Origin: a virus
Lineage: Duplodnaviria; Caudoviricetes
IMG/VR virus record: IMGVR_UViG_3300016657_000022
Coordinates: 9,512-73,511 of that record
DNA length: 64,000 nucleotides
Direction: 5' to 3' (one strand)
The notes below the pieces were generated by a model, which saw only the letters and a program-made list of their open reading frames with translations, searched no databases and had not been told where the DNA came from. Positions 9,428 through 57,983 of this stretch are shown piece after piece (positions within the stretch are counted from its first letter, which is position 1; each line of letters begins with the position of its first letter). The translations under genes were made by a program, and so were the position numbers.

Positions 9428-9668
9428 TTGCTCTCTCCCATTGGAGACGGTGCGTGGTCTGGCACACCGTGCAGTAAAGATAGATGGTGATCCCCTCCAC
9501 TTCCAAGTCCCACTTGTGTGGGCCTGAGCATGGATTCCGAATGGGGTGGTTCACACCATCCAGTGCTTTCCGCGTGAGCAGACCGGCTCGTCGGAAGTCG
9601 TCTTCAGTCCACATGATGATGGACTTTTCCGCCAGATCAGGCGGAAATGACGGTTCCGGCTGCTGCAT
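9399..9668 (-). CDS. hypothetical protein
   Basis: 89-aa ORF with C..H...C..C residues, between the AAA and vWA genes. Confidence 0.45.
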   Translation of the reverse strand: MQQPEPSFPPDLAEKSIIMWTEDDFRRAGLLTRKALDGVNHPIRNPCSGPHKWDLEVEGITIYLYCTVCQTTHRLQWERAIVQDPSTRF

Positions 9669-24386: not shown

Positions 24387-24407
24387 TCCAAACCACGCGG
24401 AGCGTGG
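24387..24407 (-). promoter_or_regulatory. N4-type virion-RNAP early hairpin promoter
   Basis: Template (plus) strand TCC-AAA-CCACGC-GGA-GCGTGG; loop centre 11 nt from a C at 24389, the architecture of N4 P2 (TCCAAAAGAAGC-GGA-GCTTC). Confidence 0.85.
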
Positions 24408-24409
24408 TA

Positions 24410-24600
24410 TTAATGGGGGCACCCCATGTATTATGTATTAAGCAAGTACCGGGGGGTACTTGGTATTACAAAGGGGTGGACCCCCACCCCCTACCCCCAG
24501 ACACACCATGAAAATCCGCCTATAGGCTCCCCCAAAATATATATATAATATGGGGGTCTATATACGCAGGTATGTTGGGGGTTACCTATCGTGCATGAAA
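24410..24600. other. probable genome terminus / terminal-repeat region
   Basis: Non-coding, homopolymer- and palindrome-rich (AAGTACC-GGGG-GGTACTT, GGGGTGG-ACCC-CCACCCC, CCCCCA-AT run-TGGGGG); lies at the switch between early and late strands. Confidence 0.55.
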
Positions 24601-24632
24601 AAACCCCCGGAGCGTTAGCTCAACGGGGGTTC
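24598..24632 (-). terminator. intrinsic terminator
   Basis: CCCCCG...CGGGGG stem plus UUUUUU on the minus strand. Confidence 0.6.
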
Positions 24633-25083
24633 TCTCGATGGGTTTGCGGCCCTCTTCATTTAACGTCTGATAGACGGGTAGATCAGTCACCGCTGCTGAG
24701 CAGCCCCCGAATACAGGTCGCTAAACCCTTAACCGGAGAGGAGTTCGGACCTCTACCTGTGGCAGTTATATGCCCCACTAACCACTGGGGTCAGGCACGC
24801 TCTCGCATACCACCGACTGAGCAAAATCACGAAACTCTGGTCGGCCTGACTGTGATATGTTGGTGAGGGAATTTATGCAAGAGGGATTTTCTTCTCTCCT
24901 CTTGGTTCAATAGGGAGGGGCGTTAGCCCTGACCGTTGGACAGCCTCCTCCGTTTCCTTCCTTCATATAATTAAAGGGGATCCGTGCTGGGCACCGTGTG
25001 TAACAGGATGGTCCGTCCCGTATTGTCAGATGGCTATATATGACCTAAAAGGGTGTGGCACAATGTGGTAAAGGAGCAACACT

Positions 25084-25410
25084 GTGACGATCAAGGATGA
25101 GAATGAGCATCTCAATCTGCTGACTGCATATCGGTCGGGGCAGGTATCGGAAGCCCAGTGGGTACAGCATCTGGCTGACCCTGAGTTCAAGGCTTTCGTG
25201 GAGAAGCAGACGGCTACCTCTTCGCAGCCCTTCGGTGTCCAGCCTGAGCAGCACGCATATATCTTGGAAGGGATCAACGATCTCCGGTGCCGGGTGAACG
25301 CACTTCCGAATAGTCGGGAGAAGAGCACCATGCTAACCAAGCTCGACGAGCTGCGTCACTGGAATGAGGATGATCGTCTTCGTTCCCACTTCGAGGCAGG
25401 AGGACATTGA
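25084..25410 (+). CDS. putative Acb2/Tad1-like hairpin nucleotide-sponge protein
   Basis: C-terminal LPNSREKSTMLTKLDELRHW fits the P.SRE.S...TKL.E...W pattern. Confidence 0.5.
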   Translation: MTIKDENEHLNLLTAYRSGQVSEAQWVQHLADPEFKAFVEKQTATSSQPFGVQPEQHAYILEGINDLRCRVNALPNSREKSTMLTKLDELRHWNEDDRLRSHFEAGGH

Positions 25411-25637
25411 GCCTCTACCAAGATACCCGGCTTCAGGATCTGGCGAAGATCGCCGCTGAAGGTGCCGGGAAGAATGCCGGGGTAGCTCCTCAGCTCCTCT
25501 TTGCCGACATCATGTTCATGTTGGTCGATGCCGTGGAGGACGGCAGGTTGCTCCTCCCTCCGAACCAGACCCCCAAGATGACTTGGGATGAGGTCTGGAA
25601 ACACTTTGACGACAAGCGTGTCGAGAACCGGGGTTAA
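25407..25637 (+). CDS. hypothetical protein
   Basis: 76 aa, TTG start coupled to the upstream stop. Confidence 0.55.
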   Translation: MSLYQDTRLQDLAKIAAEGAGKNAGVAPQLLFADIMFMLVDAVEDGRLLLPPNQTPKMTWDEVWKHFDDKRVENRG

Positions 25638-25666
25638 GAGTTACCCCCAACTTAATGAGGTAAAAA

Positions 25667-26416
25667 ATGAACGCTGTGACTGAAGACGAGCTGATCGAGC
25701 GTAGCCTCTATCCGCGAGTGACCTTCGACCAGCTTCAGGCCAACATCGTCGGCAAGAAGTTCATCCAGCATGACCTGCTGACCATCTGTGTCCTGACGCT
25801 GGCCAATGGCTTCACCGTTCTGGGGCAGTCGGCCTGTGCTGTGCCGGGCAACTTCAAGCTGGATGTCGGCCAGCGTCTGGCTGAGCAGGATGCCCAGAAC
25901 AAGATCTGGGCACTGATGGGCTATGAGCTGAAGACCAAGGTGGCTCTCGCCATGAAGGCGACTGGTCCGAGCAATCCCGAGCAGACCACCTTCGTCGGCA
26001 CCAAGGCAGTCCATGCCCAGCCGATGGATCGGGCGTCGTACAACTATCTCCGTGGCTGGGCACTGCCTGCCGACGAGAATGGTGAGGATGAGGGCTATCT
26101 GGTCGAGTATCCCGATCAGCCCGCCAACACTCTCATCTATCGGGGCTACGTGAGTTGGTCCCCGAAGGACGTGTTCGAGTCGGCCTATGAGAAAATCGAC
26201 CTCAAGGGCGAAGGCTCTGTCGGCGGTATGACGTGGGAAGCCCGTCTGGAGATCGAGGCGACCGAACTCAAGGAGCGGATCGACAAACTGCAAGCCTTCA
26301 TGGAAGGCGACCTGTTCACGTCGATCCCGAAGAGTGCCCGTTCGGTTCTGGCCGACCAGAAGCAGGTGATGGACACCTACTACTCCATCCTCTCCCTCCG
26401 ATTGCTCGGAGCATAA
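25667..26416 (+). CDS. three-domain fusion: N4 gp49/Sf6 gp66-family domain + GTK...SWSPK domain + helical-hairpin domain
   Basis: PRVT...LTICVLTLANGFTVLGQSAC..P.NF...VG..LA.QDA.NKIW.LMGYELK; FVGTK..HAQPM.R..YN..RGW..P.DEN..DEGYLVEY...YVSWSPKDVFESAY; RLEIEA.EL.ERI.KL.AF...Q..VM..Y..IL.LR. Confidence 0.75.
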   Translation: MNAVTEDELIERSLYPRVTFDQLQANIVGKKFIQHDLLTICVLTLANGFTVLGQSACAVPGNFKLDVGQRLAEQDAQNKIWALMGYELKTKVALAMKATGPSNPEQTTFVGTKAVHAQPMDRASYNYLRGWALPADENGEDEGYLVEYPDQPANTLIYRGYVSWSPKDVFESAYEKIDLKGEGSVGGMTWEARLEIEATELKERIDKLQAFMEGDLFTSIPKSARSVLADQKQVMDTYYSILSLRLLGA

Positions 26417-26639: not shown

Positions 26640-27341
26640 GTGAACGCCATTACACTCATGACGCGGGCAGACATTGAGAAGGCTCTTCCAGCCAACCTCA
26701 AGTCGTCGGCAACTCAGGCCCTGACCGACGCGATCAACCAGATCACCACGGATCCGGTGCTGGCTGAGCATATCCGCGAGAACTTCATCACCTACACCCA
26801 TGTTCTTCAGGAAGGGAAGTGGAGTGCTGAGCAGTACGCGAATGCCGTTACCTATGTGACGCACAAGCTCATGGGCCGGACGAACCAAGACGCATATGCT
26901 CTTACGTTCCCGGATCGTATGAATGAGCTGGTTGCTCGTGGCACCACGTCCAAGGACATCAGCGCCTACGTTGCCGCTTACCACAAAGGTAAGTTGGTGA
27001 ACGCGATCATGGAGAAGTGCCTGATCCCGGTCCATGTCCAATATGTGGACGTGTACCACAAGGCGATCTCGGTACAGCTAGATCTGATGCAGAACAGTCA
27101 GAGCGACAAGGTTCGACAGGACGCAGCCAACTCGATCCTCACCCATCTGGCCAAGCCGAAGGAGCAGGCTCCGACCGTGGCCGTTCAGGTGAACGTCAAC
27201 TCCGAACTCGATGCCATGAAGAAGATGATGGGCAACTTGGCCCAAGCCCAACTTGATGCTATCGACGGTGGGATGACAGCAAAGGATCTGGCGGGGCAGG
27301 TTCTGATCGAACAAGAGACCAAGACTGATGACGCTGATTAA
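26640..27341 (+). CDS. N4 gp69-like protein (putative terminase small subunit)
   Basis: Immediately upstream of TerL; SAYVAAY.KGKLVN.I.EK, S.KVRQDAANSIL.HL.KP. Confidence 0.7.
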   Translation: MNAITLMTRADIEKALPANLKSSATQALTDAINQITTDPVLAEHIRENFITYTHVLQEGKWSAEQYANAVTYVTHKLMGRTNQDAYALTFPDRMNELVARGTTSKDISAYVAAYHKGKLVNAIMEKCLIPVHVQYVDVYHKAISVQLDLMQNSQSDKVRQDAANSILTHLAKPKEQAPTVAVQVNVNSELDAMKKMMGNLAQAQLDAIDGGMTAKDLAGQVLIEQETKTDDAD

Positions 27342-28920
27342 GCAGGATCTCGATGAATGGCTGGATCAGGTGGACTACTCCCACCTGAACAGCACGGAGT
27401 TCAAGCCGTCTGGCTTCTCGCTCCAGTTCATGAACTTCATCAAGATGGTCAACGGATCTGAGGGGGAGTCCCATAAGACTCCCCCCGTGCATCTGGCCAT
27501 GCTCGACAAGATCACCGAGCCGACATCCTACATCGCCAACCTGTGCTTTCGTGGGGCCGCAAAGACCACGCTGTTCGCGGAATACTTCTTCCCGTTCGTC
27601 GCGATGATGGGTGAACTCCCCAACTTCGGGGAAGTTTCCGGTGCCATCTACGTGTCCGACTCGATGGACAACGGCGTCAAGAGCCTGCGACGGAACATGG
27701 AGTTCCGTTACAACAACAGCCCGTTCCTTCAGAAGTGGCTGCCCAAGGCGACCTTCACGGACGCCTATATCGAGTTCGAGAACATCGCTGGCCACAAGTT
27801 CGGCCTCAAGATGTTCGGTGCGAAGACCGGCCTGCGTGGTACGAAGATCTTCGGTAAGCGACCCACCCTCTGCGTGCTGGATGACCTTGTGTCTGATGAC
27901 GATAGCAAGTCGCAGGCCAGCATGATCGCGATCAAGGATACGGTCTACAAGGGCGTGAACCACGCTCTCGATCCGACGAAGCGGAAGGTCATCTTCAACG
28001 GCACGCCGTTCAACAAGGATGACATTCTCATCGAGGCGGTCGAAAGCGGCGCTTGGGACGTGAACGTCTGGCCCGTATGTGAGCGGTTCCCCTGTGAACG
28101 CGATGAGTTCTGTGGAGCATGGGAGGATCGCTTCTCCTTCGACTATGTGCAGGCCCAGTATGACATGGCCGTCAAAACAGGCAAGCTCTCTGCGTTCATG
28201 CAGGAGCTGATGCTTCGCATTACGTCTGAAGAAGAGCGTCTCGTTCAGGACGATGAGATCCGTTGGTATCCTCGTATGAACCTTCTGGTGAACCGAGGCA
28301 CATACAACTTTTATATCACCACGGATTTTGCTACATCGTCTAAGCAGACTGCCGACTACTCGGTCATCAGTGTCTGGGCGTACAACGCCAATGGAGACTG
28401 GTTCTGGGTGGATGGCATTGCCGAGCGCCAGACCATGGACAAGACGGTGGATGATCTCTTCCGCTTGGTTCAGTTCTACAAGCCTCAGCGGGTGGGCATC
28501 GAGATCACTGGCCAGCAGGGGGGTTTCATCCCTTGGCTTCAGACCGAGATGCAGAACCGCAATGTGTGGTTCAACTTCGCCACATCCAATCCGAAGAGCA
28601 ATACGCCCGGCATCCGACCTACGGTGGACAAGCTGAGCCGCTTCAATGTCGTCGTTCCTTGGTTCAAGATGGGCAAGATCTACTGGCCCAAGGAGATGGA
28701 ACGCACGGTCATTATGGGCATGTTCATCGGGCAGATCCGCCTCGCCACGGTCTCTGGGATCAAAGGCAAGGATGACTGTTTGGATACGGTGTCGATGCTC
28801 CAATACATGAACCCATGGAAGCCTTCCGAGTCGGCCCCGGCGACACCGCATGAGATCGACATCTGGGAAGAGCAGCAGGCACAGGAACAGGTCTCGGGCC
28901 TGAACTCCTATATCGTGTGA
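27328..28920 (+). CDS. terL: terminase large subunit
   Basis: CFRGAAKTT Walker A, LCVLDDL Walker B, YITTDFA nuclease motif, KDDCLDTVSML. Confidence 0.93.
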   Translation: MTLIKQDLDEWLDQVDYSHLNSTEFKPSGFSLQFMNFIKMVNGSEGESHKTPPVHLAMLDKITEPTSYIANLCFRGAAKTTLFAEYFFPFVAMMGELPNFGEVSGAIYVSDSMDNGVKSLRRNMEFRYNNSPFLQKWLPKATFTDAYIEFENIAGHKFGLKMFGAKTGLRGTKIFGKRPTLCVLDDLVSDDDSKSQASMIAIKDTVYKGVNHALDPTKRKVIFNGTPFNKDDILIEAVESGAWDVNVWPVCERFPCERDEFCGAWEDRFSFDYVQAQYDMAVKTGKLSAFMQELMLRITSEEERLVQDDEIRWYPRMNLLVNRGTYNFYITTDFATSSKQTADYSVISVWAYNANGDWFWVDGIAERQTMDKTVDDLFRLVQFYKPQRVGIEITGQQGGFIPWLQTEMQNRNVWFNFATSNPKSNTPGIRPTVDKLSRFNVVVPWFKMGKIYWPKEMERTVIMGMFIGQIRLATVSGIKGKDDCLDTVSMLQYMNPWKPSESAPATPHEIDIWEEQQAQEQVSGLNSYIV

Positions 28921-47617: not shown

Positions 47618-47654
47618 ATATGACGGCACCTCAACCATGCGAGGAAGGTGCCTC

Positions 47655-50600
47655 ATGGCTAGTCGTTATCAGGACTTGCTGAATATCTATACGCAGTCCA
47701 ATCCCATTCTGAATACGAAGCTGTTTGACACGTCTGACATGGCTCAGACCAAGGCAGCGGAGGTAGAACGGGCATCGGCAGCCAAGCAGGCAGAAGCCAA
47801 TGGTAGCCCGGACGGCTACAACCTCGCTACCATGCGTGCCACTGGTTCCGGCGTAGCATCGGCAAAGCCGATTGATCGTGACTATGTGACGCTCTCCCCT
47901 TTCCAATTTGAGCTGAAGTACGGTGCTGACACCCGTGCCCAGTATGCTGCTGCTGAAGCGTCCGGCGAGTCGGCACGTCGTGCAGGCACTCAGGGAACCC
48001 GTGACGGCTATCAGATCGCCGGGGACTCGGCCAATTCGGCTCTGATGGGCTTTGCCAATGCCTTTGGTGGCATCGGTGCTCTCGCCACTGGCCTTGTCAG
48101 CGATGATGCCGGTGCATGGGTCAGCACCAAGTTGGGCCAGCTCAACCAGTTCAGTCAGAGCCTTCAGTCTCGTGAGCTGAACGCCAGCCGGGCCGCCTAC
48201 GGTTCCCAGAACGAGCTGGATGCTGCCGACAACAAGGCTGAGGCTGCACAGGTCACGAAGGACTACGGCAAGATTGCCGGTGGCACCTACCGTTTCCTGA
48301 ACGACGCCTATGACAGTTTGGGCAATGCCCTCAAGGATCCGAACATGGCAGCCGATACGGTTGCCTCCGGTGTCGGCTCGTTGTTTGCTGGTGGTCCTCT
48401 GTCGAAGGGTCTTCGGGCCATTGGCACGGCTACCATCGGTCGGTTGGGTGCTTCGGAGGCCATTGCTGCTGCTGCCAGCCGTGCATCGACGGGGCGGTTC
48501 CTCGGTACGAGTGACCGTCTGCTCCTGAGCACGGCTGAACATGCTCCGATGACGGCTGCCATTGGTCTGATGGAAGGTGGTGGTGCCTACCAGCAGACGG
48601 TAGACCAGTCTTATCAGGAACTGATTGCTCAGGGTGTCGCCCCGGAAGAGGCCGCACGTCGGGCCAATGCTGCCGGTCTGGAAGCTGCTGCCATCCAGAC
48701 GCCGATTGCTGCCGCCACTGGCCGACTGGTCAGCAAGTTCGAGGGGCATCCCACCCGAGTCGGATCGCTGTCCAGTGCTGCTGGCAACATGATCCGTGAG
48801 ACGGTGGAGGAAACTGCCCAGTCTGCTGCCGGTCAGGTGGCCCAGAATGTGGGTATGCGTGACAACGTGAACCCCAATCAGGATCTGCTGGAAGGCGTCG
48901 GTGAACAGGCTGCCCTTGGTGGTCTGGGTGGCCTTGGTTCCGCTGGGCTTGCTCAGGCTCCGGGTGTCACTTTCCGTGCTTCGGTGGAGACGGCCAAGCT
49001 GCCGTTTAAGGCTCTCGGTGCTGGCCTGAAGTATCAGGCTGATCGAGTCCGGGCCAACAACCAGAAGGTGCAGGACCAGCTCCTGTCGGGTCTCTACGAT
49101 CAGGCCGATCAGGCTGTGCCCGATGCACAGGCCGAGATGGAACAGGTCATCGCCAATGCCAACCCGTCTGTGTCCGGGGATCTCGGTCGCTGGGCTGGTG
49201 AGCAGGTGAACCGTCTCCAGCAGTCGAAGGCTATTCAGGCTGCTGCCCAGACGGTCATGGCCAAGGGCGGTGCCGTCAAAGACAAGCTGGCGTCCTACTT
49301 CCAAGTCCGTGATGGCGTGCAGGAAATGCAGGCTGCTCAGGATGAGGCCACCCCGGCTGGTGCCGAGAACACGACCATGCAGAGCATCAAGGATGCTGCG
49401 GTCAATGTCACCCAGTCTCAGGCTGTTCAGGACTCGCTCGCCAAGGGCAAGTTGATGGTCAAGTCGGCTGCTTCGGTGGTCAATGCCAATGTGCGTGCTG
49501 CCCTCAGTCGTATGACGGCCACCCAGAACAACACCCCCGACAGTGAGGGTGCTGCGAACCTGAACGATCAGGCTCAGGTGATGGCTGGTATTGCTGCCGA
49601 CGCGCCGGAATTGGTGGATACCAAGGCTGCCGAGCAGGTTCTGTATCATGACAGTCAGGGCACCATTGCCCTGAGTGCTCCTCAGCGTAATGCCCTGCGT
49701 ACCGCTGTGGCAGCGGGTAAGGCTGCCCAGTCGGGATCGGAACTGGCTTCGACCTTTGGTCTAGCTGACGCTGATGCGGTGAGCCGTCAGGTTCTGACGG
49801 ATAAGCCCAAGGAAGGCAGCAACCTTTCGCTGAATGGCCATCTTCAGGGGATTGCTTCGGCGTACAACTCGGGTGATCTCCAGCTCGCTTCCCAGCGTCT
49901 GACTGACCTTCGCCGCTTTGCTCAGCACCTGAGCAACAAGGTGGTCTCGTTCAATGATGCTCTGGCCGGGGGGAACACGAACGAGAATAACGCAGTCTCG
50001 TTCCCTGCACTGGTGAACGGTCGCTTCATCCCCGACAGCGGAAAGACCTACTTCCAGCCCCGGAGTGCTCGCTCCGTCCAGTTGGCTCAAGAGGTCGCCG
50101 TACAGGCCCGAACGGTCGCTGACGCGGTGAACAACCTGAGTGACGCTTTCCCCGATCTGGGCATCGAACATATTGAGCCTGCCGTTCTTGACGCCTCTCT
50201 GTCTGGAAAGGCGGAAACCGTTGCGAATGAATACCGCAATGGTCAGCGTACCGTTCCCAACAGCGAGACGAAGGGTGTCCAATCCGAGACGGCGGAACCT
50301 GCACAGGCATCTGAGGTCGCCGAACCGGAAGCTGCACCTGTAGAAGAACAGGCTGCAACTGACTCGCAGCTTAACGCAGATCAGATCACAAGTGAACAGT
50401 CTGATGCACCCGTCGCAAATGAAGCACAGGTGCAAGACGAACCGACTGTAACTTCAGAGGAAGTGCCTTCGGCTGAACCAGTGGAAGAGACTGCTCCCGC
50501 TGCGAAGACGGAACAGGCTGCACCGGAAGCTGCGTCGGAGACTGCTCCTGCTGAGGCTCCTCGCTTTGGTGGGACCGAAAACCGTATTAGCAAGGCATTC

Positions 50601-53600
50601 CGTGCCGCCAAGACGGCTACTAGCCGGATCATGGACAGTGACTCACCGCTCCAGACGATCCGTGATGCCTTCAAAAGTAAGGAAGCTCTGGAAGAACTGA
50701 TCGGCTCGAAGCTGAACCGTGGCTATTCGGTCGAGGTTTCCAAGGCGTACACCAACTTCCTGAAGCTGGGTGATGGTCTAAAGACCATCATGGAAGAGCG
50801 TCTTCAGTCTGCACTGAAGGCGAAGCTCGACCGTGGGCTGAAGCCGGAAGATATGGTGAACTTCCTTGAGGGTGGTGCTCTCAATGCTGTGATCCAGAAC
50901 GAGGACGGTTCGTACTCGTATGATCCCAAGCTGCTAGAGGCTGCTACTCTGGCCGGTCTTCAGTGGTATCTGAAGATGAACAAGAACGGCACCCAGCTCG
51001 ACGATAACGATATTCGTCAGATGTATGGCCTGTCGGACACCGTTCCTCTGCCGGATGGTCTGGCCGCCATGCTCAGTGAAGGTATGGGCGACACGGAAGT
51101 GTCTCGCTCGCTTGCTGCCGAGATCGGTCGTTTCTGGGGCATGGACATCAATCCGAATGCTCCGGCCAACTATGCCCAGTCTGCTCTTGAGGGCATGGCC
51201 AAGGAACTCATCGAGTCGATGGTTGCCGGTGGCCTGATCCAAGAGACGCAGGTGGACACCAAGGATGTCCTGAACGTCCCGCACGTCAGCCGGTACAGCC
51301 CGGTCCTGACGGAAGAGGTGGCCCGTGCTGATGGCTCGACCTACACCAAGCGTAAGGGTCCGGCTCTGGATGAGACGACTCTGGCTGGTCTTCGCCAGTT
51401 CCCGGCTGCCATCGAGAAGGCTGCCCTGATCGACGGTGAGGAAGTCAACTACGTCGGGGAGAAGCCGGGAGACCGCAACTCGAAGACCCAGCTTCGCAAT
51501 CCGATGGTGGAGACGACTGACCAGCAGCGTCAGGTCATTGCCAAAGAACAGGCAACCGAGCACCGTATGAACATGCCCTTCGTGGGTATGCTGACCCGTC
51601 TTGGTGAGGGCCTCACCATGCGTCTGTTCGGTGGTGGGGACACCAACGGTCCCCTGAACGTCAATGATCGTCGTTCACTGGAAGGCCGTAACCTGACGAT
51701 GCAGTCGGCTTTCCGGTCGATCTTCAATCTGATGGCTGAAGTCCAGAACCGCTCGGATCTGGATAAGGTGGACCCGGCTGAGATGCCGGTGTTCTTCGAC
51801 TACGCCTACACGGTCGTGAACCGTCTCCAGATGCTGGGCAAGGACAACCCGCAGAGCAACAAGCTCATGCGTGAAGCCGTCCTACCGACGTGGAAGGAGA
51901 TGGACCTCACTAACCCGGATATGCGTCTGGCCTTTTCCATGGGTCTGGCTCAGGCACTGGGCATCAAGGTTCATCAGAATAGCCAGCAGCAGACGCTGAA
52001 GGATTTGACCGAGAAGCTCGCTCAGTTCCCGAAGACGTTGGAGCTGCTCCGTGATGATGGGGAGCTGTCGGAAGCCGATGTCGATACGATGAAGGCTGAA
52101 GGTGTGGACAGCCCTGTGGCTCTGCACGCTCTGATGGAATACGCCCGTCTGACCGACACTGCCCCGACTGACCGTAAGGCATTCCGTTCGGCTCTCTATT
52201 TCGAGGCTGACGGCGTGACGAACGGTGTGGTCAACGCGATGTCGCTGTTCAGCTCGAAGGATTTTACTGACACTTGGTTGTCGAACATCGAGCGTGGTGG
52301 TCTCTGGATCGGTGAGCAGGCGGCATCGCTGTTCAATCTCCGTAGCCGTGGCAACGGAAACGAGCTGGATCTCTATGGTGTGGCGGCGTCGAACACCTCC
52401 AACTACCTGACCGATCTGCTTCGCCGGAATGCTTCGGACCCGGCTGTGTCGGCCAAGCTCACGATGGTGAATGCCTTCCTTGTCCAGTACCTGAAGGGCG
52501 TGGACATGGATGGGGACAAGCTCCTCCTGAAGCGTGACGTAGTGAAGAACCCGCTGACGATCACCGTCTATGGTTCGGGCACCAATGGCATTGCCGGGAA
52601 CCTGATGGATGAGGCCCTGTCCAAGCTGTACTCGGATCTGTCGGCTGCTGCTGGCCGGATGGCTGGTGACAAGAACCTGTCGCTGGCCGAGGCGATGTTC
52701 CCTGAGATGAGCAAGGCTGAGGCAACCCAGTCGCTCAAGGGGCTGGAAGCCTTGCTCTCGCAGCTCACTGGTTCCACGCTGGGCGTGTCGGAGAAGAGCC
52801 TCTACAACGAGGAGAACTCCAATCCCAATGTGACCATTGCTGATCCGGTCGAGTTCACTCTGTCGTCTGCCCAGAAGCAAGCGATGCAGAAGAACATCCT
52901 GCACGCTTTTGCTGAACCGATGGTGCAGGGCATTACCCAAACTGTGGGTGCTGACCTCATCGATAGCATGGGCACGATCAAGACCCAGACGCAGGCTTGG
53001 TCTCTGGTCGGACAGTTCATGTTCCAGAACGAGTACGAGAAGGCCCTCGCTGCAAAGCGTAAGGCCAACCCGAACATGAACTCGTATGAGCTTCTGTCCC
53101 AATCTGAGACAGACGCCATCATGAAGAAGATCTCGGCTGACCTGCCCAGCTTTGGGACCGGCACCCAGAACTTCATGTTCGGGATGAAGCAGCGTCTCGA
53201 TCTGCCCTTCATGACCAGTAAGAATGGCAAGCCTCTGAAGCTGGAGTTCAGCCGCTCGCTGACCGACAACATGCAGACTCCAGCGTTCGGCTATATGCCG
53301 GGCGATGCTGGTGTCTCCGGCCAGCCGGGACTGACCATCGGTTCGGGTGACGGACAGGCTGTCCAGAACATCATCATGAACCCGGAGACTCCTGCCGAAC
53401 GTCTTCAGATCTTCGACGGTATCCACTCGTCTGTAGCTGACATGAGCTTGATGGGCCGGGTGTCCAATCAGGGCGTGTACGACTCGTGGGCCAATAACCC
53501 GATGCGTAGTCTGGCCGAGGCGTTCGACACCTTCGTCAAGCAGGTGGACCTGTCCGGTCTGAATGAGCGTCAGCGTACTGCCCTGTTCCGTGCCATCTCT

Positions 53601-56600
53601 GGCCGTCAGGGTATCGACGCTGACACCAATACGCTGATGAGCCTGCTCCGTCGTGAGGCTGCCACGGGTCTGAACAAGGCCAAGGGCATTGATGAGCGTC
53701 AGGCTGTGCTGAAGGTGCTTCAGCTCTCGGTGGACCAGATGGCTGGTGCTGCCACCCCCTACACGCGGGAAGGCATCATCCTCTCTGGTTCACACGCGGA
53801 GCGTGCAGCCCAGCTCAACATCCTGAAGTCTCAGATGGCCAAAGGAGCGGTTCTCAGGGCCACCCAGAGCGAGTCTGCTCCGCAGACGGGCAATGTGGCC
53901 AAGGAAGCCTCAAAGTCTTCTATGGCAGCCCGTGGGGCAGATGTGAAGCTCTTCACGAAGGGCATGGATCGCTACATCACCAAGCTGACTTCGGACCCGA
54001 CGACTCGTGCCCTGCTCCGGGATGTGACTCGTTCGGGTAAGGTCGATGCCTACAAGGTCTGGACCGGCAGCCGTGAGGAGCTGATCCAGCACGCCGCTGA
54101 TATGGGGATCTCGATCCCTGCTGATCGTCAGAAGACGTTCATGGGCTTCACCGATCCGGTGTCGAAGCAGCTCTTCGTTGTGAACGGCAACGCTGAGACC
54201 ATGCTCCATGAGCTGATCCACGCTGCTACCTATGAGACGGTGGCTGCCCACTATGCTGGTGAGAGCGTTGCTTCTGAAGCGGCTGCTGCCATCGAGCGTA
54301 TCGAGCAACTCATGGCCCAGTTCCGTGAGGCTGGCCTTGATGGCGATGCCTACCAGAATGCTTTGGATGAGATGGATCGTCAGGCTGACGCCGGGAACCA
54401 AGCCGCAGAACTAAACGAGTTCATGGCATGGGCACTCAGCAATCAGGATCTGGCCGAGCAGCTCAAGGGCACTCAGGTCGAGAACCGTTATCTGCTGCTG
54501 GCGAAGAAGGCAGTGCAGGCCCTCAAGGCTCTGCTCTGGGGTGGCAAGCGTTCGGCTGCCGTGAAGGATGATGTGTTCACGAACCTCCGGTTCAACACGA
54601 ACATCATCATGCGTGCCGGTCAGTTGTCGGACATGGCCCGTCAGGGTCTGCTGTTCCACGATCCCAGCTTCGGCGACAACCAGCGTGTCTCGGATCTGCT
54701 TGGCAACATCAAGGCCAAAGTCTCCGACTTCGTTGGGGAGGATGCTGTTCGTCGTGTGGTCAACTCGGCACAGGCTCGCCAGAGCCTTGCCAATGGTGCC
54801 CGCATCATGAAGGCGTTCACTGAAGCTGGCTTCGATATGACGAAGCAAGAGCAGATGGCCTTCATGCACATGGTTGGCATCATGGGTACTGCCGCCGATC
54901 TGGACGCTAACTCGACGGCCCGGATGCAGGACATTTACACCCATGCCATCAAGAACCTGAGCTTGGGCGACTTCCTCCAGAACCCCGGTGAAGATGACCC
55001 GGCAGACAACTATCAGGCCAACCGGAAGCTGTCGCTTCTGGCGGGCAAGTTTGCTGCTCGTGAAGATACTTTGGATCGTTCGTCGATCCTGCCTGCCTTC
55101 GTGGCACTGGCCCAGACGAATGATGAGTTCCGGCAGATCCTGTCCAAGATGGATATGCCCAAGGGCCAGTACGAAGCATGGAACTCGGTCGATGGCATTC
55201 TCGACAACCTCGGTGACATCGCCATGGATACTGTGGGCCGGGCTGTGTCTGGTGAAGGTGTCCGGTCTAAAAATGCCCAGCAGGCTCTGGACAATCTGAC
55301 CATGCAGATGCTGGAGACCAACGAAGACGCTGAGTGGTTCATCGAGCGGTTCACGAAGCCTGTTGGCTCGTTCACTGACCGGGTGAATGACGGCCTGACC
55401 AACCTGTTCCAGAAGGCAGGCGAGGGTGCCCAGAACCTTGTGACCAAGGCAAAGAAGGATCCGAACGCCAAGGTTAAGATTGCTCTGGCCCAGACCCTTC
55501 AGACGGTGACGGGTATGCTCCATGAGCAGACTGGGCAGGAGGCATCCATGTCCCTGATGTCGGCTGCCAATCAGTCGAATGGGATTTGGAAGCCCTTCTA
55601 CGATCTGCTCAAGGATCTGATCGGTCGCACGGCTGAGAATGCTGGCGTCTATGATCTCATCAAGCTGGCTCGTTACCATGTATCCAGCCTGCGTCAGCAG
55701 TATGTCGAGAACCTGCCGAACATCATCAACTCGAAGTTCAGCACTCCTCTGACTGCCGAGCAGCAGGGGCATATGCACCGTGGGCTTGCCCAGACGGATC
55801 TCGCATCTATGTTGGTGGGCAACAAGATCGAGGATGTGCTTCGTTGGGTGAAGTCGGCTTCGGCCCGTCAGAGCAAGATCAACGAACTGGCTGATACCAT
55901 TCGTGGTCTGGCCCCCGATCAGGCAAAGCTGATGCTGGCCAAGTCGGATCAGCTCGCTGGCTGGATGGTCTCGAAGTCCACTGGTTCCAATCTGCTCCGC
56001 AACGCGGATGCCATTGCTCATCTGTTGGGTGAGGGTGTTCAGGTTGCTGATCCGACGCCGGAACTGGTGCAAGCCATCGACCACTACGTGTCGATGAAGG
56101 CTCTGGACATGCAGCCGACGAAGACCCGCAACGCTCTGGAGGTTCTGGCCGGGAAGGAGTCCGATGGTCTCAACTTCGTCTTGAACCTGCTGCGTGGTCA
56201 GCGGATGATCGACGATACGAAGGCTGACGGCAATGCCCGGTTTAACCACTACAAGGGCTTCATGACTGCTGCCCCTGCTGATGGTGTGAGCCTGATCGTT
56301 GCCCATGACAATGAGGCTGCCAGCCTGCTGGAGAAGAGCTACGTCCGTGTTGGTGCCTTCAAGGGTTCGGAGAAGGATCCTTCTGGTAAGGGTCGTTCCT
56401 ACTGGATGGCCCCGGTGTCGGGTAAGGCTCCCTACTCGCAGGGCATTGCCCAGAACGTGCAGCAGACGGTTGGTGGTGTGGATCACGCCTCGGGCTTCAC
56501 TCAGGGCCTGACTGGTGGCGTCATCACTGATCCGAAGCTGGTGGCTCGTATCGCCAAGGCGGGAACCAGTGAGACGAATGGGCAGGCTCTGCTCCCGGTC

Positions 56601-57983
56601 TATGACAAGCAGGGCAAGCTGTATGCTTTCGAGCGTCAGGTTGATCCTGCCATGACTGCCCGTCTGAAGCCGGACTACAATCTGGCCAGCATGATGGGCC
56701 AGCGTTCGGGCCGCCAGATGGAAGAGGCTGCTGCCTTCCAGATCAACAAGCTCTTGGTCGATAATCTGCGTGATATGTGGGATCGAGACAAGGGTAAGGC
56801 TGGTCGCCGGAATGAATATGTGAACCTGCTCGAAAGCACCGATCCGGTGGTCCGTGACTCGGTGGCGATCTTCTCCAATGAGATGCGGGATTACATCACC
56901 GATCGGTTCCCCGAGGGTTTCATGGTCCGTAAGGATATGATCGACGATGCTATCGGCTATCGTAATGCCAGCATCGGTGATGCTTGGACGGGCACTTCGC
57001 GGTGGTCGCCGGAGACTCAGCAGTTGGTCAAGAATGCTCTGATGTCGATCTTCGGCAACAAGGCATATGCCCACGCTGTCCGGGCTGAACGCTTCTTGCA
57101 AAATGCTATCGTGCAGGATCTTCGCACCATGATCGTGATCCGGTCTGTGGTGGTTCCGGTCGGCAATGCTGCCTCGAACATCTACCAGCTCATCAGCCGT
57201 GGTGTGCCGGTTGTCCCGATGATCCGTTCGATCCCGAAGAAGGTCTCGGAAATCGAGAGCTGGCACAAGACCCGGCTGCGTCAGATGGAAGCTGAGGCCG
57301 AGTTGCTGGCTGAAACGGATCCGTTCAAGCGTCAGAAGCTGGAAGCGGAGATCAAGGGCATCACTGACTCCCATAAGCGTCTGACCATCTGGCCGCTGCT
57401 GGAAGCTGGTGAGTTCTCCTCGATCTCGGATGCTGGTTCGCGTGAAGACGTGCTGCTGTCGGAAGGCAAGCTCTCGGACTATCTCGAAGCTGCCGTCGAT
57501 AAGCTGCCCCCGGCTGTTCGCACGATGGGCAAGTACGCCATCATCTCGAAGGATACGGCACTGTTCCGTGCCCTCCAGAAGACGGTCGATTATGGTGACT
57601 TCGTGGGCAAGGCCATCCTGTACGATGACCTCACGAAGCGGAAGAAGATGACCAGTGCTGAGGCCCTTGCCCAGATCACTGAGGAGTTCGTGAACTACGA
57701 CAGGCTGCCCGGTCGTGACCGGCAGTATCTGGAGTCCATTGGTCTTCTCTGGTTCTGGAACTTCAAGGTCCGGTCGGCCAAGGTGGCCATGAGCATGATC
57801 CGTAATAACCCGGTCCATGCTCTGATGGCAGCGAACCTGCCGACGCCCATCACGGGGATCGGTCTGCCTCTGGAGGACAACCTCTGGGCTTCGATCTTCG
57901 ATGGCCGGGCAGCCAACAGCATTGGCCTGCACATGGCGTTCCGAGCGCCGGGCCTGCTGCCGATTGGCAATCTGCTCGGATAA
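47655..57983 (+). CDS. virion-encapsidated RNA polymerase (N4 gp50-like), ~3440 aa
   Basis: YAYTVVNRLQM, motif A FEADGVTNG, motif B RDVVKNPLTITVYGSG, motif C IFDG, HELIH zincin-like segment, Cys-poor; start at MASRY (RBS GAGG). Confidence 0.96.
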   Translation: MASRYQDLLNIYTQSNPILNTKLFDTSDMAQTKAAEVERASAAKQAEANGSPDGYNLATMRATGSGVASAKPIDRDYVTLSPFQFELKYGADTRAQYAAAEASGESARRAGTQGTRDGYQIAGDSANSALMGFANAFGGIGALATGLVSDDAGAWVSTKLGQLNQFSQSLQSRELNASRAAYGSQNELDAADNKAEAAQVTKDYGKIAGGTYRFLNDAYDSLGNALKDPNMAADTVASGVGSLFAGGPLSKGLRAIGTATIGRLGASEAIAAAASRASTGRFLGTSDRLLLSTAEHAPMTAAIGLMEGGGAYQQTVDQSYQELIAQGVAPEEAARRANAAGLEAAAIQTPIAAATGRLVSKFEGHPTRVGSLSSAAGNMIRETVEETAQSAAGQVAQNVGMRDNVNPNQDLLEGVGEQAALGGLGGLGSAGLAQAPGVTFRASVETAKLPFKALGAGLKYQADRVRANNQKVQDQLLSGLYDQADQAVPDAQAEMEQVIANANPSVSGDLGRWAGEQVNRLQQSKAIQAAAQTVMAKGGAVKDKLASYFQVRDGVQEMQAAQDEATPAGAENTTMQSIKDAAVNVTQSQAVQDSLAKGKLMVKSAASVVNANVRAALSRMTATQNNTPDSEGAANLNDQAQVMAGIAADAPELVDTKAAEQVLYHDSQGTIALSAPQRNALRTAVAAGKAAQSGSELASTFGLADADAVSRQVLTDKPKEGSNLSLNGHLQGIASAYNSGDLQLASQRLTDLRRFAQHLSNKVVSFNDALAGGNTNENNAVSFPALVNGRFIPDSGKTYFQPRSARSVQLAQEVAVQARTVADAVNNLSDAFPDLGIEHIEPAVLDASLSGKAETVANEYRNGQRTVPNSETKGVQSETAEPAQASEVAEPEAAPVEEQAATDSQLNADQITSEQSDAPVANEAQVQDEPTVTSEEVPSAEPVEETAPAAKTEQAAPEAASETAPAEAPRFGGTENRISKAFRAAKTATSRIMDSDSPLQTIRDAFKSKEALEELIGSKLNRGYSVEVSKAYTNFLKLGDGLKTIMEERLQSALKAKLDRGLKPEDMVNFLEGGALNAVIQNEDGSYSYDPKLLEAATLAGLQWYLKMNKNGTQLDDNDIRQMYGLSDTVPLPDGLAAMLSEGMGDTEVSRSLAAEIGRFWGMDINPNAPANYAQSALEGMAKELIESMVAGGLIQETQVDTKDVLNVPHVSRYSPVLTEEVARADGSTYTKRKGPALDETTLAGLRQFPAAIEKAALIDGEEVNYVGEKPGDRNSKTQLRNPMVETTDQQRQVIAKEQATEHRMNMPFVGMLTRLGEGLTMRLFGGGDTNGPLNVNDRRSLEGRNLTMQSAFRSIFNLMAEVQNRSDLDKVDPAEMPVFFDYAYTVVNRLQMLGKDNPQSNKLMREAVLPTWKEMDLTNPDMRLAFSMGLAQALGIKVHQNSQQQTLKDLTEKLAQFPKTLELLRDDGELSEADVDTMKAEGVDSPVALHALMEYARLTDTAPTDRKAFRSALYFEADGVTNGVVNAMSLFSSKDFTDTWLSNIERGGLWIGEQAASLFNLRSRGNGNELDLYGVAASNTSNYLTDLLRRNASDPAVSAKLTMVNAFLVQYLKGVDMDGDKLLLKRDVVKNPLTITVYGSGTNGIAGNLMDEALSKLYSDLSAAAGRMAGDKNLSLAEAMFPEMSKAEATQSLKGLEALLSQLTGSTLGVSEKSLYNEENSNPNVTIADPVEFTLSSAQKQAMQKNILHAFAEPMVQGITQTVGADLIDSMGTIKTQTQAWSLVGQFMFQNEYEKALAAKRKANPNMNSYELLSQSETDAIMKKISADLPSFGTGTQNFMFGMKQRLDLPFMTSKNGKPLKLEFSRSLTDNMQTPAFGYMPGDAGVSGQPGLTIGSGDGQAVQNIIMNPETPAERLQIFDGIHSSVADMSLMGRVSNQGVYDSWANNPMRSLAEAFDTFVKQVDLSGLNERQRTALFRAISGRQGIDADTNTLMSLLRREAATGLNKAKGIDERQAVLKVLQLSVDQMAGAATPYTREGIILSGSHAERAAQLNILKSQMAKGAVLRATQSESAPQTGNVAKEASKSSMAARGADVKLFTKGMDRYITKLTSDPTTRALLRDVTRSGKVDAYKVWTGSREELIQHAADMGISIPADRQKTFMGFTDPVSKQLFVVNGNAETMLHELIHAATYETVAAHYAGESVASEAAAAIERIEQLMAQFREAGLDGDAYQNALDEMDRQADAGNQAAELNEFMAWALSNQDLAEQLKGTQVENRYLLLAKKAVQALKALLWGGKRSAAVKDDVFTNLRFNTNIIMRAGQLSDMARQGLLFHDPSFGDNQRVSDLLGNIKAKVSDFVGEDAVRRVVNSAQARQSLANGARIMKAFTEAGFDMTKQEQMAFMHMVGIMGTAADLDANSTARMQDIYTHAIKNLSLGDFLQNPGEDDPADNYQANRKLSLLAGKFAAREDTLDRSSILPAFVALAQTNDEFRQILSKMDMPKGQYEAWNSVDGILDNLGDIAMDTVGRAVSGEGVRSKNAQQALDNLTMQMLETNEDAEWFIERFTKPVGSFTDRVNDGLTNLFQKAGEGAQNLVTKAKKDPNAKVKIALAQTLQTVTGMLHEQTGQEASMSLMSAANQSNGIWKPFYDLLKDLIGRTAENAGVYDLIKLARYHVSSLRQQYVENLPNIINSKFSTPLTAEQQGHMHRGLAQTDLASMLVGNKIEDVLRWVKSASARQSKINELADTIRGLAPDQAKLMLAKSDQLAGWMVSKSTGSNLLRNADAIAHLLGEGVQVADPTPELVQAIDHYVSMKALDMQPTKTRNALEVLAGKESDGLNFVLNLLRGQRMIDDTKADGNARFNHYKGFMTAAPADGVSLIVAHDNEAASLLEKSYVRVGAFKGSEKDPSGKGRSYWMAPVSGKAPYSQGIAQNVQQTVGGVDHASGFTQGLTGGVITDPKLVARIAKAGTSETNGQALLPVYDKQGKLYAFERQVDPAMTARLKPDYNLASMMGQRSGRQMEEAAAFQINKLLVDNLRDMWDRDKGKAGRRNEYVNLLESTDPVVRDSVAIFSNEMRDYITDRFPEGFMVRKDMIDDAIGYRNASIGDAWTGTSRWSPETQQLVKNALMSIFGNKAYAHAVRAERFLQNAIVQDLRTMIVIRSVVVPVGNAASNIYQLISRGVPVVPMIRSIPKKVSEIESWHKTRLRQMEAEAELLAETDPFKRQKLEAEIKGITDSHKRLTIWPLLEAGEFSSISDAGSREDVLLSEGKLSDYLEAAVDKLPPAVRTMGKYAIISKDTALFRALQKTVDYGDFVGKAILYDDLTKRKKMTSAEALAQITEEFVNYDRLPGRDRQYLESIGLLWFWNFKVRSAKVAMSMIRNNPVHALMAANLPTPITGIGLPLEDNLWASIFDGRAANSIGLHMAFRAPGLLPIGNLLG

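Follow-up and report, generated by a model that had tools for sequence, protein, structure and literature searches.

The stretch of DNA analysed (the window; 64,000 nucleotides, positions 9,512 to 73,511 of IMG/VR record IMGVR_UViG_3300016657_000022) is from an N4-like phage, with a 3,448-aa virion RNA polymerase encoded at 47637-57983 and the terminase at 27328-28920. A gene for a 249-aa protein lies on the plus strand, where it closes a run of three small genes of the same orientation; a phrog_2109 gene and then the terminase gene follow directly downstream. The features of the locus were as follows:

25084-25410, + strand: 108-aa ORF upstream of ORF U, with a weak, sub-threshold Acb2/Tad1-hairpin signal.
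25407-25637, + strand: 76-aa ORF, here called U, with a TTG start after GGAGG, directly upstream of the fusion gene.
25657-25660, + strand: Shine-Dalgarno-like GAGG, 6 nt before the ATG of the 249-aa gene, from direct reading of the sequence.
25667-26416, + strand: sponge-fusion gene, in the order Acb4, M, Sequestin (ORF of 249 aa, Pfam, AlphaFold2 model).
25721-25939, + strand: Acb4 domain (PF13876), residues 19-91 (Pfam, Foldseek, phmmer).
25985-26200, + strand: M module, residues ~107-178 (PHROG matches, homologue clusters, models).
26231-26404, + strand: Sequestin domain (PF21825, crAss001_48), residues 189-246 (Pfam, helices, ligand residues).

The 249-aa ORF holds three modules, an Acb4 domain, then a middle module termed M, then a Sequestin domain; an earlier note on this DNA had proposed a three-module layout, and the ORF, Pfam and AlphaFold2 agree with it. 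The full-length AlphaFold2 model, for which 58 homologues were used as input, had a mean pLDDT of 92 and contained three folded units, the sole poorly defined stretch being a floppy linker at residues 180-189. The N-domain was modelled as alpha/beta, the middle domain as beta-beta-alpha-beta-beta-alpha and the C terminus as a helical hairpin. Dozens of homologues of ~250 aa, down to about 40% identity, share this layout, which excludes an assembly artefact as the origin of the architecture. The protein is a multidomain fusion, and the word polyprotein used in the earlier note was wrong, as there is no sign of cleavage. It is a known kind of double sponge with M added as a third module, and M is the new part.

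The placement of the gene before the phrog_2109 and terminase genes was also found in Rhizobium phage RHph_X3_15, in which the 252-aa homologue is 44% identical. The order of sponge fusion, phrog_2109 gene and large terminase is conserved between the window (26640-28920) and RHph_X3_15 (L002:4865-7137) despite this low identity of the sponge proteins, and would mark a second position for anti-defence genes in N4-like phages, on the terminase side. Elsewhere in the window there was no further Acb4, M, Tad2 or Sequestin module. A sigma-70 promoter scan around the sponge-fusion gene found none, and there were no tRNAs near the gene.

ORF U, directly upstream, is 52-53% identical to residues ~10-79 of two longer proteins, P0022 (340 aa, 25 contigs) and P0015 (361 aa), both of which continue as Acb4-M-Sequestin after a U-like N-terminal segment of ~75 aa. 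As U is fused N-terminally to Acb4-M-Sequestin in other phages, it was assigned to the same cassette, and by this Rosetta-stone link between sequences it is a candidate fourth anti-defence module. U gave no Pfam or PHROG match and nothing usable in the ESM Atlas. For the 108-aa ORF, residues 53-90 were aligned to PF24729 at E 0.0048 and 17.5 bits, below the cutoff of 27; a relationship to Acb2/Tad1 stayed under the threshold, and the 6 homologues were too few for a profile. Further upstream, an ORF-poor stretch of about 650 bp (24400-25080) separates a minus-strand block of small genes from the plus-strand block that begins with the three small genes. It carries three terminator-like hairpins on the + strand, at 24413, 24640 and 24881, and may be a genome-end or regulatory region.

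Residues 19-91 matched PF13876 (Phage_gp49_66) at 77.4 bits against a gathering cutoff of 27 (E 1.2e-21, Pfam), and the helix of this domain extends beyond the Pfam match to about residue 97. PF13876 is Acb4, a sponge that as a tetramer takes up the cyclic dinucleotides of CBASS (Chang et al.). In Foldseek, the N-domain model was superposed on SPO1 Acb4 (9E4W) with E 4e-4, probability 1.00, TM 0.71-0.76 and rmsd 1.6 Å over 70 columns; the protomer fold of 9E4W, a three-stranded sheet with flanking helices, is present in the model, and 9e4w was also the top PDB sequence match of the protein in phmmer. The assignment of the N-terminal gp49/gp66 family to Acb4 in the earlier note was thus correct on both Pfam family and fold.

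Although SPO1 Acb4 has the same family and fold, it is about 23% identical to the N-domain here and its guanine- and phosphate-contact residues are replaced. The roles of its pocket residues were taken from 10.1101/2024.12.30.630793: K36 and E49 read guanine, and the guanine and phosphate contacts are among K36, E49, Y57, T70 and K81. In the phmmer alignment these five correspond to L37, T50, A58, L71 and A82, in a family whose members vary in ligand, and the base-stacking and hydrophobic residues F48, F62 and I66 of SPO1 are kept as F49, F63 and V67. With the SPO1 contacts replaced, the ligand preference of this Acb4 domain is probably different, and its ligand is uncertain. Partial conservation of the pocket fits the differing ligand preferences of N4 Acb4, by which c-di-AMP is bound at 111 nM, and of the Ab09 protein described below.

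At the C terminus, residues 189-246 matched PF21825 at 55 bits against a gathering cutoff of 24.8 (E 7.5e-15, Pfam), and two helices (190-213 and 222-248, pLDDT above 90) form the hairpin in the full-length AlphaFold2 model; the crAss001_48-like helical hairpin of the earlier note was therefore recovered in both. Its description of this domain as uncharacterised was out of date, as PF21825 was named Sequestin in 2025 and is a sponge that, as a dimer, sequesters the type I Thoeris signal 3'cADPR (1''-3' gcADPR) (Tal et al., bioRxiv 10.1101/2025.07.12.664507). The key ligand residues of SequestinA are R8, E12, Q47 and R61 (same preprint). In the protein here R193, E197, Q231 and R245 are invariant among the 58 homologues, have the same spacing as the Sequestin ligand residues (R-x3-E ... 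Q-x13-R) and line up with the equivalent residues of Ab09 gp59. The domain-wise HMM and Foldseek check that had been suggested for the protein thus confirmed Acb4 and Sequestin by Pfam, and the Acb4 fold by Foldseek.

Two-domain Acb4-Sequestin proteins, gp59 of Pseudomonas phage vB_PaeP_C2-10_Ab09 and a fusion from phage YH6, have been tested experimentally (bioRxiv 10.64898/2026.06.04.730250; 10.1101/2025.07.12.664507). Ab09 gp59 is a tetramer that binds gcADPR tightly, binds 3',3'-cGAMP and 2',3'-cAA, and blocks type I Thoeris and, in part, type II-A CBASS (bioRxiv 10.64898/2026.06.04.730250). It comes from an N4-like phage, has its Acb4 and Sequestin domains in the order seen here and is 38% identical to the protein here over the shared parts, with both ends aligned. 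The domains of gp59 (147 aa) are directly joined, whereas the protein here has a clean insertion of ~85-90 residues, mostly M. The gene here adjoins the terminase block, a site other than the primase-vRNAP hotspot of Migulavirinae. In phage N4, the neighbouring genes for gp48 (Acb4) and gp49 (M-Tad2) have the same Acb4-then-M order as the fusion, and the Acb4 part is 38% identical and M 54% identical (residues 107-178 against residues 8-79 of N4 gp49); N4, however, uses two genes with M followed by Tad2, where the window has one ORF with M followed by Sequestin.

Taken from homology, fold, the conserved ligand residues and the tested Ab09 gp59, a double-sponge function of the Acb4 and Sequestin domains is predicted with good confidence. 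The gene of this N4-like (Schitoviridae) phage would encode a modular counter-defence protein, in which the Acb4 domain would form a tetramer and sequester CBASS-type cyclic dinucleotides, and the Sequestin hairpins would pair as dimers and sequester 1''-3' gcADPR. The multivalent immune-signal sponge that the earlier note had suggested is therefore upheld by homology for these two domains and left unsupported for M.

The motifs GTK...RGW...DEGYLVEY...SWSPKDVFESAY were confirmed in the middle segment. When scanned alone, this segment had no Pfam match even at E<=10, and M had no NCBIfam and no PADLOC match; it matched phrog_872 and phrog_9467, which are PHROGs without assigned function. M was modelled as beta-beta-alpha-beta-beta-alpha at pLDDT 86 (M only) and about 96. 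The M-only model had no significant neighbour in the PDB by Foldseek (best E 1.4) and nothing distinctive by VIA-align wide (best Z 3.6), in which small beta-barrels (chromo, Tudor, CarD, CAP-Gly) and DUF1653 were tied at Z 2.5-3.1. A search of viral predicted structures with the M model recovered other M-containing proteins, one of them with an RyR domain, and the ESM Atlas returned unnamed viral clusters only. In the literature, no paper was found that names or tests M, apart from a divergent copy in gp68 of phage CB1, and M is absent from the seven sponge families of an October 2026 review.

Within the fusion, conservation is highest in M, with a mean pairwise identity of 0.60, compared with 0.54 for Acb4 and 0.38 for Sequestin. 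Roughly 25 of its positions, many of them polar or charged, are near-invariant and are kept in every architectural context, and the conservation spans hosts from Bacteroidota to Pseudomonadota. They include a near-invariant loop, Y-N-x-x-R-G-W-x-L-P-x-D-E-N-G-x-D-E-G. M has an acidic pI of 4.5, and the character of the invariant loop is acidic and aromatic.

An exhaustive search (E<=1e-3) gave at least 1,491 50%-identity cluster representatives with M, in which the module was N-terminal, internal or C-terminal. Among 150 diverse representatives, the Pfam partners of M were Sequestin (49), Tad2 (42), Acb4 (37) and the Acb2/Tad1 hairpin (2), with no others, and the architectures included M-Tad2 (36 of 150), M-Sequestin (22) and Acb4-M-Sequestin (14), as well as Acb4-M, M-Acb4, M alone and M with partners of no known family. 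Divergent M is also fused to RyR Tad, the fifth sponge partner. In 80 IMG/VR loci, a gene with M often had a separate Acb4 gene directly next to it, on one side or the other. Stand-alone M proteins of ~73 aa exist, and with N4 gp49, in which M directly precedes a Tad2-like PF11195 domain, they bear out the statement in the earlier note that the middle domain occurs alone or fused to Tad2-like proteins. At five of six stand-alone M loci in IMG/VR, genes for Acb4, Tad2 and Sequestin were all absent up to a distance of 3 kb. On one IMG/VR contig (L028:3001-3485), a gene for a 74-aa stand-alone M has a stop that overlaps the start of an 87-aa Tad2 gene, so that the pair is a split form of the common M-Tad2 fusion.

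Other fusions join M to partners of 50-130 aa without a Pfam match, which fell into about 36 sequence clusters, mostly singletons (P0258, P0305, P0376, P0344, P0277, P0312, P0370 and others). Sequestin was discovered as the uncharacterised domain most often partnered with Tad2 and Acb4 (bioRxiv 10.1101/2025.07.12.664507), and by the same logic these partners are further candidate sponge or anti-defence domains. M itself is now the commonest unnamed partner of sponge families.

The sole structural data for the M fold come from RyR Tad, gp68 of Pectobacterium phage vB_PatP_CB1, whose C-terminal RyR-like domain sponges gcADPR. In the crystal structure of gp68 the N-domain is a domain-swapped dimer with beta1 exchanged; residues 1-86 by themselves were inactive against type I Thoeris, for which the RyR domain alone sufficed (2026 preprint). 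Residues 1-70 of gp68 were identified as a distant M (hhalign probability 94.8%, E 5.2e-8, 68 columns, 31% identity). The protein thus joins M to a gcADPR sponge, as here, although its sponge is an RyR Repeat12-like domain and the partner here is Sequestin. The core motifs K..Y, A.PM, EGYLV.Y and SWSP..VF are kept in the gp68 N-domain, whereas the equivalents of R122, N126, R129 and W131 and the acidic LP.DENG loop are missing; M in the window has the RGW/DENG loop. As gp68 keeps the core motifs without this loop, the loop is unnecessary for the fold or the swap and would be conserved for another reason.

By analogy with this distant relative, M probably forms a domain-swapped dimer through strand exchange, and such a dimer would fit a D2 tetramer that has an Acb4 core plus two dimers each of M and Sequestin. 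The suggestion in the earlier note that M is itself a candidate new sponge found no support, its divergent relative being a swapped dimerisation domain inactive against type I Thoeris by itself.

It is nevertheless proposed that M may be more than a passive hinge and may carry a third putative binding site around the near-invariant Y-N-x-x-R-G-W... loop, with another small NAD- or nucleotide-derived signal as the most likely ligand. Such a small-molecule site in M is a candidate that is put forward tentatively. The reading as a whole, a double sponge plus an M with its own binding activity, is regarded as quite possible, somewhat short of probable. In its broadest form, M would be a new widespread counter-defence family, a further sponge or another kind of binder, that is active alone at 73 aa and is added as a cassette onto Acb4, Tad2, Sequestin, Acb2/Tad1-like domains and RyR Tad, which would make the fusion here a three-specificity sponge; this is open to more doubt, and is considered possible.

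The reading that comes next keeps the double sponge and makes M a passive structural module, a swapped-dimer clamp or spacer that would assist the assembly of fused sponges, or keep two sponge oligomers at a distance, without a ligand or target of its own; it is considered somewhat unlikely. It would account for the RyR Tad results, in which the M-like N-domain contributes to dimerisation via the beta1 swap and is inactive alone, and that single negative gp68 assay counts against an activity of M. It also fits the position of M, most often directly before sponges with a ligand at dimer interfaces, as in the M-Tad2, M-Sequestin and Acb4-M-Sequestin architectures counted above. M has an acidic surface, unlike the positively charged pockets typical of sponges, and no detectable similarity to known sponges, other known binders or nucleotide-binding folds, which likewise favours a passive role, and Ab09 gp59 works without M, so that M is dispensable for double-sponge function. 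Against a passive module stand the stand-alone M genes, which are mostly without a recognisable sponge neighbour. Conservation of M beyond that of the flanking sponges, in all contexts and hosts and including polar and charged residues, would be unusual for an oligomerisation module, and Tad2 and Acb4 oligomerise by themselves. Finally, gp68 keeps the fold without the conserved polar loop, and this loop is exactly what that inactive copy has lost. These three lines of evidence, the stand-alone genes, the context-independent conservation and the lost loop, argue for an activity of M itself.

A different role, as a protein-binding inhibitor or decoy, would, much as with Tad3-Tad8, place the acidic loop of M on a conserved basic site of an immune protein of the host, for example a TIR/ThsB, a CD-NTase or an effector, and the fusion would then join signal sequestration with direct inhibition. 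The acidic and aromatic character of the invariant loop, the low pI and the occurrence of M alone are consistent with this, and direct ThsB/ThsA binders are known among small phage proteins. However, about 60% identity across very different hosts points to a universal target rather than a fast-evolving immune protein, and N4 and Bas69, which both have M-Tad2, are still restricted by PanDA/Panoptes, so that this role is clearly unlikely. The same restriction disfavours the idea that M counteracts Panoptes/PanDA, which are sponge-guard systems, and the ~60% identity of M across unrelated phage types disfavours a role as a tag for capsid targeting or injection.

The weakest reading, in which M is a cryptic, degenerate Tad2 (DUF2829) repeat and the protein is an Acb4-Tad2-Sequestin fusion of three known families, is very improbable: M usually adjoins Tad2, Tad2-Acb4 and Tad2-Sequestin fusions are published, and there is a superficial likeness of motifs (RGW and SWSP..D....Y in M, GW and W.PS..D...DW in Tad2), but M had no PF11195 match even at E<=10, its hhalign probability against Tad2 was 0.2%, and a PDB search with the M profile matched Tad2 only through the Tad2 halves of fused members. 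Foldseek aligned the M model weakly to SPO1 Tad2 (8WJE; E 4.2, TM 0.29), which is compatible with a shared fold or with none. With hhalign probabilities below 1% against the Tad2, Sequestin and Acb4 profiles, and with the Pfam result, M as a hidden repeat of any of the three was rejected.

Phage sponge proteins determine the success or failure of CBASS and Thoeris immunity, and the study of their fusion partners has already led to one new sponge family, Sequestin. M is more conserved than the sponges to which it is attached and is present in the model phage N4, in gp49. If M has a target of its own, a major counter-defence family would be added, perhaps with a signal or host factor new to immunity. 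If M does no more than act as a dimerising hinge, it would account for the way in which phages construct multivalent sponges.
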